A model generated the notes under the pieces. It made no database searches and was not told the DNA's origin. It worked only from the letters and a program-made list of their open reading frames with translations. A stretch of 63,327 bases of DNA, filler included, from Stramenopiles sp. TOSAG23-6 (taxonomy: Eukaryota), in NCBI GenBank assembly GCA_900128565.1. It is 45 parts of 45 records of this genome, joined end to end, with 100 filler letters (N's around TTAATTAATTAA, not from the genome) between each part and the next. Parts side by side here need not be neighbours in the genome. Positions count along the whole stretch, not along the records: positions 56,428 to 57,728 come from LT639289.1; 44 more parts are not named here. The stretch is one strand, 5' to 3'. Positions 11,068 through 60,529 of this stretch are shown here, in pieces; the stretch's first letter is position 1, and each line of letters starts with the position of its first letter. The translations under genes were made by a program, and so were the position numbers.

Positions 11068-11759
11068 GATGTATATAACTTCTTCGAATCAAATATTTTC
11101 GTGACCTCAAGAATATAATAATTTAATAAACAGATAGTACTGTAGTAGTATTGTCGCTACTATGGTAAATTATCACTTTATCAAGTGTTTAGTGATGCTA
11201 AAGGTAATGCAACCGGGAAACTGCAATATTTGGCCAATATTTGTGAATTTGTGANNNNNNNNNNNNNNNNNNNNNNNNNNNNNNNNNNNNNNNNNNNNTT
11301 AATTAATTAANNNNNNNNNNNNNNNNNNNNNNNNNNNNNNNNNNNNNNNNNNNNAAAACTATATAAAGCAGTGAAACTAAAACTATATAAAGCAGTGAAA
11401 CTAAAACTACGCGTATAAGAAATTTCTCTATTTATGGTGCATTCATACGACACTGTTGCTAAAACCTCTTTGATTCAATATTTTAGAACCAATCTACTCA
11501 AATCACAAAATATACCTAGAAGAATGGTAATGTTTTATATATTTTGGCTCTATGGCTATTTTGGGGGTACTCTCTACACAGTATACAGCTAGGAACTAGC
11601 TTGAAACAATAAGACGGATGTTTCTGTCATGACTTGATTGATAAAGACCGCGTGAGTCCGTGACACGTGTCACAAAAAAGTCAGCAAAAAAATAAAAGAA
11701 ATTCCAAAAGTTACACACAAAGTCAAAGTGGGTACGTATATAAATAATTAGACAAGAAA

Positions 11760-12671
11760 ATGTCTGTATTTGGGACACAATGCTTTATTAATCCTATACG
11801 AAAACAAATGCATTCTAATAAAAAACCATGGCTGGCATTTCAGCGTATATTTCGTCGATTTCAGAGTACATCACCGTTAAAGTTACAAGTAAGACATACA
11901 AGGAACAAAACTGAGAAAAATGCAATAAACAAACATTTTTTTAAAGTAGCTCTAGTAGGACGTCCTAACGTTGGGAAATCAACTCTATATAACCGTCTAG
12001 TTGGTGGTAGACCAGCGATTTGTCACCGAGAACCAGGTACGACTCGAGACCGGCAAGAAGGAACTGCTTGGCTTGCAGGTCTTCAATTTACAGTCGTAGA
12101 CACAGGAGGACTCGAAGAAGGTGGTGAGGAAACCATGGAAGGCAAAATTACTCGGGCAACTGAGTTAGCTATTGAAGAATGCGATGTCGCCATTTTAATG
12201 CTTGATGCTCGTGCTGGTGTAACTTCATTAGATGAACATTTTGTTCGATGGATTCGTAAACGATCGGATAAAACGCCAATGCATATGGTCCTAAATAAAA
12301 CTGAAGGTTTTTTCGATCGGGTACAAGAATATGAAGACGGTTGGATCGAACCTGAAGATTCTCGTTGGTTACAACTGAATTCTGATATTCAACGTCTTGG
12401 ATTCTCTAATCCAGTGGCTATATCTGCAGAGCATGGTACTGGAATGGTGGATTTGTGGCATTTATTATACCCTCATTCTAAAATTACGTCTGAAATGGTG
12501 AAAAGTGATGAAAAGTTTGATTTATCCTCTTCAAGTATTGAAATCAGTAATAATTTGAATAATTTAAATATGAATGTAACACTTAACGATCAAGATGACG
12601 AATTACACGATGACTACAATTTTGAGGAATTTGAATCTCAAAATAAAAACAATGCCAATTTTGAGGAATTT
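11760..12671 (+). CDS. der: EngA/Der ribosome-biogenesis GTPase with N-terminal presequence-like extension (3' partial), copy 1
   Basis: VALVGRPNVGKSTLYNRL, PGTTRDR, DTGGL, NKTE and ISAEHG; basic N-terminus suggests mitochondrial targeting. Confidence 0.92.
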
Positions 12672-56327: not shown

Positions 56328-56461
56328 NNNNNNNNNNNNNNNNNNNNNNNNNNNNNNNNNNNNNNNNNNNNTTAATTAATTAANNNNNNNNNNNNNNNNN
56401 NNNNNNNNNNNNNNNNNNNNNNNNNNNTTTTCAATTTAGAATTTATTTTTCCAAAATACAT

Positions 56462-57340
56462 AACCCTGTGAAACTGCTCGTTCCTCTTCTTGTAACAAAT
56501 ACGCTTTGTACTGCTGTAGCACATACGTTTTCAAAATTGAATTTTTTACCATTTTCAAATTTTTTTTTTCATCGTAAATTTTACACCTAACTTTTTTTTT
56601 TTTTTAAACCAAAAAATAATATTTTTTCATAATACATTAACCGTATTTGAGAGACCTGATCCTAGAGCAAATTTGCATAGCTATGGCGAAGCTATTTATC
56701 TTTCACTGATTACAATGTCAACAGTCGGCTATGGGGATTACTACCCAGTTACATTTTTTGGTCAACTCAGTATTATATTTGGAGGTGTCATTGGGGGAAC
56801 ATTACTAGCTACTCTTTTAATTACAGTATTTGTGAATAAAAGTGCGACCTCACACCAAGAAGATTATGTCATTAACATTGTACTCAGAAGAAAATGGAGG
56901 AAAAAGCTTAGGGACAATGCTGCATCTGTAATACAATGTGCCTTTAAAGCAAGACTACTACAAATTAAAAGAGATCGTGGAAATAAAAGAGTCACCAATG
57001 AAATGCAAAAGATACATCAAAAATTATTTTCCAGTATACAAAACATGCGGAGAGTAAGGCTTCAAAGGCCTGACGATCAAACAGATCGACAAATCCAAGA
57101 TGAATGGACAGAAAGTATTCGAAGGATATTATTGACTTTAACTGGTGAGAAGAGTCCAGTCTTTAAAAGATCTGGGAAATCGAGTTCTATAGTAGAAACT
57201 AATGTGACAATACTAGAACTGATGGATAATGTGCGAAAAAGACAAGATAAGTTAGAAGCTCTCACAAATGAACTTACGGGAGTTGCAGCGCTGCTTCAAC
57301 AGAAAATATCATTGAAAAAAAAGAACTACAAACAAAAAAA
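56462..57340 (+). CDS. SK/KCNN-like potassium channel (S5, pore, S6, CaM-binding region); exons 56462-56522 and 56638-57340
   Basis: ITMSTVGYGDYYPVTFFG pore and AASVIQCAFK CaM-binding-like segment. Confidence 0.88.
56523..56637 (+). other. AT-AT intron
   Basis: ATACGTTTTC donor; C|TA gives P...FER spacing equal to KCNN S5; end is 15 nt after AATAT. Confidence 0.78.
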
Positions 57341-57387
57341 NNNNNNNNNNNNNNNNNNNNNNNNNNNNNNNNNNNNNNNNNNNNNNN

Positions 57388-57686
57388 TTACCATCTCGTT
57401 GACCTAGCTCTTCCACGTAATAAATATTGCATTGCATCAACTAAAGAATAACTACTAATACTGTCTATCACCCATCTATAATCTACAACCTGTATGATTT
57501 CGTTTTGATTCATTTCTTTGAGATTTCGTGGTAAATGTCCAGCTGTAAGCGCAGAATCACAAACAACGATTGATGAAGAAAACGATTTTCCTTCAGACTT
57601 TGAATTTTCAATTAACTGTTCAATTGTCCAAGCTATTACGCCTCCACCTAACTGCGCAAGACCATTCAGTACGGATTTAGAAGGAC
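57388..57686 (-). CDS. Terminal exon with BRCT-like domain
   Basis: LGGGV...IVVCD...VVDYRWVIDSISSY.L....Y; preceded by the branch motif and ...AATACAT. Confidence 0.6.
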
Positions 57687-59355
57687 ATGTATTGTGAAAA
57701 AAAAAATGTATAAAATTCGTTAGGTATANNNNNNNNNNNNNNNNNNNNNNNNNNNNNNNNNNNNNNNNNNNNTTAATTAATTAANNNNNNNNNNNNNNNN
57801 NNNNNNNNNNNNNNNNNNNNNNNNNNNNCAAATATTTTTTTTTTTTTTTTTTTTGGTCATCGTGTGCGCTAACCAATACAACATTACGAGCTAGTGTAAA
57901 TAGTTTTTGGTATAAGTTCACACTGGGTTTTGTTTGACTTTGATAAATTGTAAATGAATCATCTGTTTTACCATTAAGTTTGCATCCAAAAAATATACGA
58001 GGCGGAATACTCACACCATCAATTGATGCATGTTTCATTAATTCAAATAGTCTTGTTTTAGGGTCAAGAAGTTCAGGGTCATTCTTTTTCCAACACAAAC
58101 CTTCTCTGGAACAATCCTCATATAATTTGCCAATTCCAGAGGACCACAGTAAATTCAATACATCATCTATACATGTATTTAATTCTTGTTTATAACGCTG
58201 TCACAGTGTTCTTCAATTACTACACAAGGGTCTTCTTCTAGTCTAAAGATAATACTTTTTTTGTTGGGCATATCTAGCATGACAGGAACTTGTAAATCAT
58301 TCCTTGGCTTGCTCTTTTGCCGTCGGGCAACGGAAAGCCTTGTTGTTAGAACAATACATAGAAATACACTGAAATCGAATGGAATTATTATCATTGTACA
58401 TTGTAATATAACACTCTGCGTTCCTACAGCCGTGTTTTTGGTGATGATTCTAAAAAAAAAACAGTCAGTAAACTGCTTAGAAAAAATTTAATNNNNNNNN
58501 NNNNNNNNNNNNNNNNNNNNNNNNNNNNNNNNNNNNNNNNNNNNNNNNNNNNNNNNNNNNNNNNNNNNNNNNNNNNNNNNNNNNNNNNNNNNNNNNNNNN
58601 NNNNNNNNNNNNNNNNNNNNNNNNNNNNNNNNNNNNNNNNNNNNNNNNNNNNNNNNNNNNNNNNNNNNNNNNNNNNNNNNNNNNNNNNNNNNNNNNNNNN
58701 NNNNNNNNNNNNNNNNNNNNNNNNNNNNNNNNNNNNNNNGCTGACTCATGTTTTTCTCATGGGGATTTTGCAAATGCACGTAATCATCTCGACCGTTCCT
58801 TAGACATATTTTCAGGGATGCCGTCTAGTGTGGAAAGTAAATATATGGTAAATGCCGTAAAGCGACGTATAGTTGGGGTTTGTGAAATGATAGGCGATGT
58901 AGCAGAAGGTGAAAGGTTGTTGCTTGAGATTCTTTCTTCGGAGCTCGGAAGCGAGGAAGAATATCTTATGAAACGCTGCATATCCCGCCTTTATATTCAA
59001 CAAAATAGACCAAGTGAAGCTCTCAAATATCTTTCGAAAATGTCAGACGTTGAGTTAGATTCCACTGTTGACAGGGTTAGTGCTAGAGTAGAAGATCTTA
59101 TTTTACTTGGTATAGTTAATAGTATGGATNNNNNNNNNNNNNNNNNNNNNNNNNNNNNNNNNNNNNNNNNNNNTTAATTAATTAANNNNNNNNNNNNNNN
59201 NNNNNNNNNNNNNNNNNNNNNNNNNNNNNTAGATTTTTTTTTACAATGTTCAAATCAAAAAAAAAAAATTGTAGATTTTTTTTTTCTTTTTTTTTTTCGT
59301 AGTACATTTTGTACCTAACGAATTTCAAATACATAAATATTTTTTACTATATATA

Positions 59356-60529
59356 TCGCTTGGAGATTGCTGTACAGGACTTTAACAATGTTGAAAAAAC
59401 TCAAAACGACACAAATGACAGGTACGTTTTAAAACTTTTTATGTATCATTTGTTTTATATAGAAATATATATATTTTTTTTAATTTCGTACGAAATTTCA
59501 TACCTAACAAAAACAAATTAAAATTTTTGAAAAATGTTTTGAAATATTTCCCCAAAAAAACATATTGACACCAAATGATCAAAATACAGGTCAACATTCA
59601 AAATCATCAAAATCATCAAAAACAACAGTAAAGAGTAATTCACAACAACAGGTATTACAAAGTGAAGGACACACTGACAACAGTTCTGTTCCATCAACTG
59701 AAACAGAACACACTGACAACAGTTCTGTTCCATCAACAGAAACAGGACACACTGACAACAGTTCTGTTCCATCAACAGAAACAGACAAAGAAGAAAAAAA
59801 TAGTTCTGTTCCATCAACAGAAACAAAAACAAAAACAAACACAAACACAGAAGAAAAAGCAAAAGAAAAAAATGAAAATGAAAATGAAGAAACACAACAA
59901 CACAAAGAAGAAGACAGTGAGAGATTGGCTTTACTTCATAATGTAGAGGATAAATTAGATAGCATTATTCAGAATGGTATCAATGGTAAAGCATCAGGAG
60001 GACCAAAAGAACAACCAGCAGCAGAACAAGCAGTAACAGCAAAACCAACAAAACAACCAGCAGCAGAACAATCAGCAACAGCAAAACCAACAGAACAACC
60101 AGCAGCAGAACAACCAGCAAAACCAACAGAACAACCAGCAAAACCAACGGAACAACCAGCAGCAGCAACTGAACAACCAACAGCAGAACAACCAGCAACA
60201 GCAACAGAACAACCAGCAGCAACAGCAAAAGCAACAGAACAACCAGCACCAGAACAAGCACCATCATCAACAGCAAAACCACAACCTACACCAGTGGTAT
60301 CTAGAGCATTTCGTTTTGTTGCGTAGGTTCGTTTTTTATATGAAATGTCATACTTTTTTTTTTTTTGTACGAAATTCTGTACCTAACAAAAAAAACAAAT
60401 TTTTGGAATATTTTTCCAAAATACATGCAGAAGCTTGGAAACCTTCCAAATTAGAAAATATTGATGAATATATACGATATGCAGCTTATTGGATTGAAAT
60501 CGTAAAATTACTTGCTGGCCCTGGTGTCT
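59356..60529 (+). CDS. Repeat-rich protein (HTDNSSVPSTET x3, EQPA repeats), multi-exon
   Basis: Long ORF with 42-bp and EQPA repeats; GT-AT intron 59422-59563. Confidence 0.55.

Follow-up and report, generated by a model that had tools for sequence, protein, structure and literature searches.

An intron that both opens and closes with AT was found at positions 56523-56637 of a 63,327-nucleotide stretch of DNA from Stramenopiles sp. TOSAG23-6 (GenBank assembly GCA_900128565.1; the whole stretch is called the window below), within a gene predicted to encode a K+ channel of the SK/IK (KCNN) type. An RNA contig joins position 56522 directly to position 56638, and this exon junction is very probably a genuine splice. 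The intron opens with ATACGT (ATACGTTT) and closes with ...AATACAT, positions 56634-56637 reading ACAT; on the upstream side the exon closes with ...GCA C (56522), and on the downstream side the next one opens with TA ACC (56638). Judging from its sequence, the intron is one copy of a very uniform, probably introner-like intron family. It lies on the scaffold that occupies positions 56428-57728 of the window, which has an internal gap at 57341-57387.

Exon junction and host gene

The junction was examined in public sequencing data, for which 18 runs were listed, 11 of them RNA; three RNA runs (X3, X5 and X6) and one DNA run (X4) were examined. Run X3, a polyA seawater metatranscriptome, gave a 161-nt contig (depth 4.2) that covers 56460-56522 and 56638-56679 with 0 mismatches. 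At its joint 115 nt are skipped, the skipped segment having the ends AT..AT, and no letter is common to the two sides. Hence, the register of the joint is exact and microhomology of the template-switching type is absent. The contig carries 46 further letters upstream of 56460 that read as the preceding exon, so that it crosses two junctions. An earlier reading of the window, made from the sequence only, had predicted this AT..AT junction, and the RNA contig reproduces it; the predicted product also agrees with 3/3 homologous proteins. The same reading had placed the start of the upstream exon behind the AG at 56439, and here it has to be corrected, as the RNA sets the start at 56460, 56461 or 56462, behind ...AATAC(AT). 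Within this 2-nt register ambiguity, homology with the cassette described below favours 56462. The features of the locus are as follows, P0001 being the protein of the second exon and P0002, P0005 and P0006 its homologues:

56428-56461, + strand: 3'-terminal stretch of the gene's preceding intron (…CCAAAATACAT), from the X3 RNA contig, with an upstream exon that matches the GFNFKMLLKN region of the homologues
56462-56522, + strand: exon coding for the beginning of the S5 helix in a predicted SK-like K+ channel, from translation, RNA with 0 mismatches and the P0002/P0005/P0006 alignment
56523-56637, + strand: intron of 115 nt with AT at both ends, RNA joint 56522>56638, the sole splice with an ungapped match to homologues
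56523-56540, + strand: 5' splice-site block ATACGTTTTCAAAATTGA, an A-variant of the family donor GTAYGTTTT, from column-wise alignment with G-start donors
56570-56591, + strand: degenerate family core and branch-like box CTAAC (56587-56591; putative branch A at 56590), from a 10-intron alignment
56616-56637, + strand: 3' module ATAATATTTTTTCATAATACAT, with an ATATT box that starts at 56619, at a distance of 19 nt from the first exon base
56638-57340, + strand: exon encoding the end of S5, the pore (TVGYGD), S6 and C-terminal helices, from P0001, Pfam, P0002 and RNA cover in X3, X5 and X6

The exon at 56638-57340 runs into the assembly gap at 57341, and its protein P0001 matches Pfam Ion_trans_2 (E 1e-11). 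Two protein searches with P0001 returned four proteins at E ≤ 0.001, three of which were used as homologues; the fourth, P0003 (E 4.2e-4), which is 44% identical across 28% of the query, was set aside as a distantly related K+ channel. P0002 (434 aa, 66% identical to P0001) is encoded on a 1462-nt contig. Across the junction the three homologues read N-T-x-x-T-A-x-A-L-x-[VI]-x-E-R, which in P0002 is NTLATAVALTVFERPDP. The top 11 PDB sequences for P0002 are SK2/SK4 (best E 1.9e-20, residues 8-351), and the alignment is ungapped through S5. The earlier argument from the KCNN-like spacing of the S5 helix therefore holds. With its six-transmembrane core, its TVGYGD-type filter and its similarity to KCNN proteins through S5-S6 and the following helices, the predicted product is an SK/IK K+ channel; as to calmodulin-dependent gating, it is the sequence similarity of the proximal C-terminal helices that bears on it.

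Candidate splices were compared by scripted splicing and alignment. The AT..AT product was ungapped against 3/3 homologues and scored 837 against P0002, compared with 825 for GT-AC and 788 for GT-AG. The GT-AC junction from 56527 to 56635, which the sequence-only reading had named as one that would refute its own, keeps the frame open and inserts two residues relative to the homologues; it is not the junction of the X3 contig, which joins 56522 to 56638. The GT-AG junction from 56516 to 56651 deletes seven residues. An AT-AC intron closing with the C at 56635, for which the sequence-only reading had noted a stop codon, leads to 16 stops and is not the RNA junction either, and the AT-AC and remaining GT-AG combinations give 15-18 stops. 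A CA..CA cut one base leftward would yield the identical protein and is ruled out by the RNA.

One homologue is of separate interest. P0005 (356 aa, 75% identical, on a 1275-nt contig that is either DNA or cDNA) reads through both intron positions and diverges right after ...LLITV. This contig may be genomic DNA that lacks both introns and has another one, which hints at differences in intron presence and absence. Two metagenome-contig scans, with P0002 and with the alignment A1 as queries, gave no related genomic locus.

A repeated intron cassette and its 3' ends

The core of the family, the 16-mer TACGAAATTTTGTACC, has 55 matches at ≤2 mismatches in the window against 0.12 expected, and TAAC or something close to it comes next in every case. 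The cassette begins with the donor GTAYGTTTT (GTACGTTTT or GTATGTTTT), a T-run, the core and an ACCTAAC/(C)CTAAC branch box, and continues with an A/T-run, (G)AAATATTTTT and about ten bases leading to ...AATACAT, ...AATATAT, ...AATCCAT, ...AATACAG and similar ends. Its ATATT box lies 19-20 nt before the intron end, which reads Y-A-T or Y-A-G. In a MAFFT alignment of 10 introns including that of the K+ channel gene, ACCTAAC is invariant (10/10); the first base of the 56523 intron is A where the nine others have G, and its last T falls in a T/G column. Its core is degenerate, but the 3' module (56616-56637) has near-identical counterparts at 48050-48071, 30745-30766 and elsewhere. The cassette occurs in introns of the K+ channel, kinesin, PP2C, WD40 and DENN genes, that is, as many similar copies in introns of unrelated genes, in the manner of introners, and tandem cores are found inside single introns. 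In the DNA metagenome X4, pieces of the intron are found on many different contigs at depths up to 272, and the exon at about 2.9, which fits a high-copy family.

The 3' ends were curated for 18 introns in which both flanks are open and resolvable, the ends being placed by frame inspection, a stop-codon test and homology to the 56523 intron. A codon-usage model for the choice of acceptor was dropped, being so weak that it rejected even the RNA-proven 56523 intron. Introns with unresolved ends or frames were excluded (donors 9624, 15922, 21018, 61767, which is probably 5' untranslated region, and 6060; likewise 6827, because of a gap, and the intron ending at 60426, which has no clear donor), as were those running off a scaffold end (82, 5482, 5842, 17176, 28420, 50642, 62106, 15655 and 1968). 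The assignments, by donor position, are:

GT..AT, 9/18: 1712, 5293, 25959, 41863 (=30610), 36335 (=37742), kinesin 37317/35910 (first base N), 49731, 50376, 59422
GT..GT, 1/18: 62382, ending ...AATACGT
AT..AT, 1/18: 56523
GT..AG, 5/18: 4491, 5022, 20506, 22151 and the GTAAGT intron of the kinesin gene
AT or a nearby in-frame AG, 2/18: 18133, 62861

Several of the T-ending assignments are constrained by the reading frame. For donors 1712, 41863, 59422 and 62382 no frame-keeping AG exists from the branch box to 45 nt past the proposed end, and for donors 49731, 50376 and 56523 the frame is broken if the intron is ended at the first AG past the branch box. With donor 5293, an end in T brings back the D-x3-[RK]-x-W spacing found in the other WD repeats of that protein. 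When ends were taken blind to frame, 19 nt from the start of ATATT, the 25 non-redundant modules gave AT in 12, AG in 3, GT in 1, AA in 3, CA in 3 (each with T as the next base, hence 20-nt variants) and TT in 3. The 3' T is thus not peculiar to the 56523 intron and is the commonest end in its family, only the 5' A being rare, and T-endings are likely, from frame and homology, to be common in the genome. The earlier proposal of relaxed terminal bases is in line with these assignments, according to which G..T, G..G and A..T pairs would all occur in the window. Homologues resembling cDNA were sought for the sibling GT..AT introns: the PP2C exon gave 0/89 candidates, the DENN exon one weak match (E 3.7e-5) against 1.84 billion representatives, and a PDB search with the PP2C exons one match at E 0.29 for one exon and 0 for the other. 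Pfam put the PP2C and DENN names on the exons, without junction-level coordinates.

At the 5' end, G is the first base in 20/20 non-redundant donors that precede a strict core (GTACGT in 11, GTATGT in 9), and the A-type donor was found at two loci, 56523 and 1968. Two further donor features belong to this comparison:

15638-15655, - strand: sibling donor GTACGTTTTCAAAATTGA, the G-variant, whose intron runs off the scaffold end
1968-1985, + strand: second A-type donor, with the same 18-mer, closing an open exon; a palindromic chimera cuts off the 3' end of its intron

As the sequence-only reading had pointed out, the 56523 donor equals the one at 15655 save for its first base, the common 17-mer being exact. 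This 17-mer has four exact matches in the window (56524, 15638, 1969 and 2178) against 0.00 expected from 100 shuffles, of which 1969 and 2178 are the same sequence on the palindromic scaffold; at ≤3 mismatches the donor block has 8 matches against 1.04 expected. The sole A-start intron with a known end, that at 56523, ends in T, and T could pair with A as well as with G at +1; the lack of coupling between the two ends proposed in the sequence-only reading is a conjecture. In both kinesin scaffold copies (37317 and 35910, - strand) the first base of the family intron (xTATGTTC) is N, which could hide a G/A difference between the copies.

Exons end in AT before 10/20 of the strict-core donors (background 9.3%, p = 3.9e-6), for example 25959, 62861 and 5842. 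This exon-end AT may be part of the donor signal or the trace of an AT target site. An AT target-site duplication is not favoured, since exon end and intron end do not co-vary and match in only 3/15 introns, and no clear terminal inverted repeat or target-site duplication was found in the family introns of the window.

Other observations concern the arrangement of family copies. In an X6 RNA contig, a family 3' end (...ACAT) is followed, after a single G, by a family donor (TACGTTTTC...) in head-to-tail order, which suggests that the ends of the unit coincide with splice sites and that cassettes stand in tandem at other loci. An X4 DNA contig has a separate joint that skips 56465–56523, with inserted letters. 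Two telomere-like TTAGGG units stand at 50382-50393, directly after a family donor, and in the minus-strand family intron at 15780-15860 a (CAATCAAAA)n-type microsatellite replaces the branch box and the 3' module. At 61767-61677 and 61791 (- strand), two family introns surround a 25-nt mini-exon that ends in ATG, upstream of a 355-codon open reading frame (ORF); this arrangement looks like a 5' untranslated region, in which splicing would decide the ATG used.

Splicing pathway and competing explanations

GTAYGT is the classic major-type, yeast-like donor. Positions +2 to +6 of the 56523 donor (TACGT) match the family GTACGT, and +1 is A instead of G. The intron has the CTRAY branch box and pyrimidine run of U2-type introns, as CTAAC at 56587-56591 followed by a T-run, and 47 nt separate the putative branch A (56590) from the 3' end; the candidate string for pairing with a U2 branch-binding site would be UACCUAAC. 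In U12 introns, the branch box lies about 10-26 nt from the 3' end and has the form TTCCTTRAC, which differs from ACCTAAC at 47 nt. Nor is the U12 donor [G/A]TATCCTT found, in the intron or in the family consensus GTAYGTTTT, and RTATCC is absent. The yeast-type donor, the distance of CTAAC and the T-run thus point to the major pathway. Hence, at the level of motifs, the earlier description of the donor as U2-like, a misfit to RTATCCTT, is upheld; donor and branch box look U2-like and not U12-like, and from them the acting spliceosome is inferred. The end of the intron departs from the major-type YAG, being CAT, with the RNA cut after T. An Rfam search of the window gave 0 matches and no small nuclear RNA in the 63 kb.

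On balance, we lean towards the explanation that the 56523 intron is a spliceosomal intron of the family, with major-pathway signals, in which U is accepted as the last base and the A at +1 is a variant of G. Recognition of the donor and of the branch site would then be ordinary, and the second splicing step (exon ligation) would accept U at the last intron position. The last intron base contacts the first in catalysis, as known from yeast structures and from suppression genetics of the first and last bases. A terminal U could pair with G, by wobble, or with A at +1, and an A at +1, arising as a simple G-to-A variant of the family donor, may be tolerated because the terminal U can pair with either purine. 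The five AG-ending members might, speculatively, be copies that later gained a better end.

Several points weigh against this explanation and against the T-endings on which it draws. The joint was seen in one contig, from 1/4 runs examined, the junction being covered by X3 and lying outside the cover of X5, X6 and X4. The RNA gives the exon junction only, and the end bases A56523 and T56637 come from a single assembly with artefacts (a palindromic scaffold and scattered Ns). Of the curated introns only that at 56523 has RNA proof, and the other T-endings were assigned by frame and by homology to it; the frame, in turn, sets the length of an intron modulo 3 and not its register. Where the exon ends in AT, as at 10/20 strict-core donors, GT..AT and an AT..AC placed two bases leftward give the same mRNA. 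An in-frame AG lies within 45 nt in 5/9 of the GT..AT calls (three 28-30 nt away, two 12 nt downstream) and for both ambiguous introns (18133 and 62861). Lastly, GT-AT and AT-AT boundaries have been tied to U12-type introns (PMC1557818; 10.1101/2020.10.12.336362).

This last point is the basis of the strongest alternative, namely that a transformed minor (U12-type) spliceosome, resembling the expanded minor system of Physarum, removes the 56523 intron and its whole family. AT-AT and GT-AT are indeed the usual non-canonical U12 boundaries: 12 AT-AT and 7 GT-AT U12-type introns were reported in human plus mouse, where AT-AN and GT-AT are productive (PMC1557818), and in Physarum these boundary pairs account for 17% and 8% of the minor introns that are non-canonical (10.1101/2020.10.12.336362). 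The family donor GTATGTTTT is one position off a Physarum donor, and ACCTAAC is one deletion from CCTTAAC. Against this stand the major-type donor GTAYGT, the lack of RTATCC in the 56523 intron, and the branch box, which lies 35-57 nt from the 3' end in 13/14 of the family introns that have one, and 13 nt from it in the remaining intron, compared with 9-12 nt in Physarum minor introns (preprint 10.1101/2020.10.12.336362). We consider a transformed minor spliceosome unlikely.

It is more improbable still that one or both terminal bases are an assembly or amplification error, or a variant private to the sequenced cell, and that the true intron is GT..AT or GT..AG. The assembly is fragmentary, contains single Ns, and includes at 1422-2741 a scaffold that is a perfect inverted repeat of itself (1320/1320 bases), which looks like an amplification or assembly chimera; the RNA is blind to the intron termini, and at position 56930, where the assembly has A, 4/4 sequencing runs have T. 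However, the same A-type 18-mer recurs at 1968, the terminal T is common to most of the family, and two errors falling exactly on both terminal bases would be very unlikely. The change at 56930 is synonymous, at a third codon position, and likelier a strain variant than an error. Position 56994 reads G in runs X3 and X5 (Thr to Ala), and near-identical strains are present in seawater samples from several studies.

Least probable of all, and very unlikely, is a loss of the 115 nt without RNA splicing, through an intron-less allele or strain, excision at the DNA level or template switching in reverse transcription: the joint was indeed seen only in a metatranscriptome contig, a kind of library that can hold DNA, P0005 reads through both intron positions and family members behave like mobile repeats, but the X3 contig, from a polyA library, lacks two separate intervening sequences, its joint has no microhomology, which argues against template switching, the 56523 element carries the full set of splicing signals, and no DNA contig of the joined form was found, although the sole DNA run examined (X4) is uncovered there.

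The window itself is made of 45 scaffolds of about 1.3 kb apiece, sorted by falling size and joined by N44-TTAATTAATTAA-N44, and its GC content runs from 21 to 35%; the source is an AT-rich marine eukaryote. The joins are placed as follows:

1366, 2786, ... 61973: linkers between scaffolds

Near-duplicate scaffolds are present (11355-12671 = 12772-14088 = 14189-15505; 21267-22580 = 22681-23994; 29737-31043 ~ 40992-42296; 35365-36671 ~ 36772-38078). An eEF3-like ABC gene at 38180-39484 (+ strand) shows a frame shift near 38925-38945, with the first Walker A segment seemingly lost; the frame shift may reflect a mistake in the assembly, a deletion or a junction of an unusual type. A Sar1-like ORF is among the ORFs of the window.

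Relation to known introns and meaning

The 56523 intron comes close to several known classes. U2-type AT-AC introns (the SCN4A/SCN5A class) likewise combine A at +1 with a major-type donor, ATAxGT (PMC1557818); theirs end in C, giving an A-C pair, and are isolated and ancient, whereas the 56523 intron ends in T and belongs to a repeated family. Non-canonical U12 introns of mammals and Physarum (AT-AT, GT-AT, AT-AA, AT-AG) have the same terminal pairs, with any last base after A. They differ from the 56523 intron, which has no RTATCC and whose branch lies 47 nt from the end compared with ~10-20 nt, and while they are <1% of introns, T-endings look like the majority class here.

Departures from the AG rule throughout a lineage, often with repeated, transposon-like introns, have been described in Fritillaria borealis, hemistasiid diplonemids, Amoebophrya and Euglena (PMC13326754, PMC12621601, PMC7789003), and in Fritillaria duplicated, divergent U2AF paralogues recognise the non-AG ends (PMC13326754). 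In those lineages the 5' ends are degenerate, the ends varied and end pairing prominent, whereas the family here has a strict donor and branch box and departs in the last base alone. The 56523 intron has a minimum free energy of -2.6 kcal/mol with its ends unpaired. Across the family, pairing of +1..+9 with -1..-9 amounts to 88/135 in register and 86/135 shifted by +2, hence no better, and a core hairpin was stable in 1/3 copies folded and absent in the 56523 intron. RNA structure is not the explanation for the splicing of this intron. Its conserved signals and absent end pairing thus make it unlike the nonconventional introns of euglenids, hemistasiids and Amoebophrya.

To our knowledge, published introners use GT-AG. 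Introners of Micromonas, Aureococcus and dinoflagellates resemble the family in forming many near-identical introns of ~90-200 nt, with unit ends at the splice sites (PMC7789003), and differ from it in that no clear terminal inverted repeat or target-site duplication is seen here. The introns of compact genomes such as Ostreococcus (Irimia & Roy 2008; PMC2483917) are similar in that donor and branch box are uniform and the distance is constrained; unlike in them, conservation in the family also takes in the 3' module and the 16-mer that precedes the branch box, cores occur in tandem and the end is not AG.

AT-AT termini and an A at +1 with a major-type donor are each known separately, and their combination was not found in the literature searched. 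Nor was a genome in which strict-donor introns are mostly T-ending or GT-AT encountered in that literature, which left out supplements and many subscription journals. We class the 56523 case as lineage-specific non-canonical splicing, of which a prior description elsewhere is possible. More tentatively, it is conceivable that the dominant intron class of this uncultured, widespread marine eukaryote consists of proliferating copies of one cassette whose donor and branch box are strict and yeast-like; the major spliceosome would cut it after Y-A-U, and a G-to-A change at +1 would still be spliceable through pairing with the U.

Few bases of eukaryotic genes are as conserved as the terminal G of introns, which contacts the first intron base at exon ligation. 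The wider meaning lies with the T-ending intron family, which is likely on the strength of one RNA-proven junction and frame logic. If strict GT donors and branch sites do go with routine T ends, the contact between first and last base can be rewired alone, and the occasional A at +1 adds to this case, in contrast to Fritillaria, hemistasiids and Amoebophrya, where both ends are degenerate. Natural AT..AT introns of major type would, if true, serve as a natural experiment on the contact between first and last nucleotide in the second catalytic step, and might offer a view of young introns drifting from AT to AG ends. Most genes of this organism would be annotated wrongly by standard gene finders built on GT-AG. 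Should the cassette prove mobile, the quality of splice sites in new introns would be traceable from insertion onwards.

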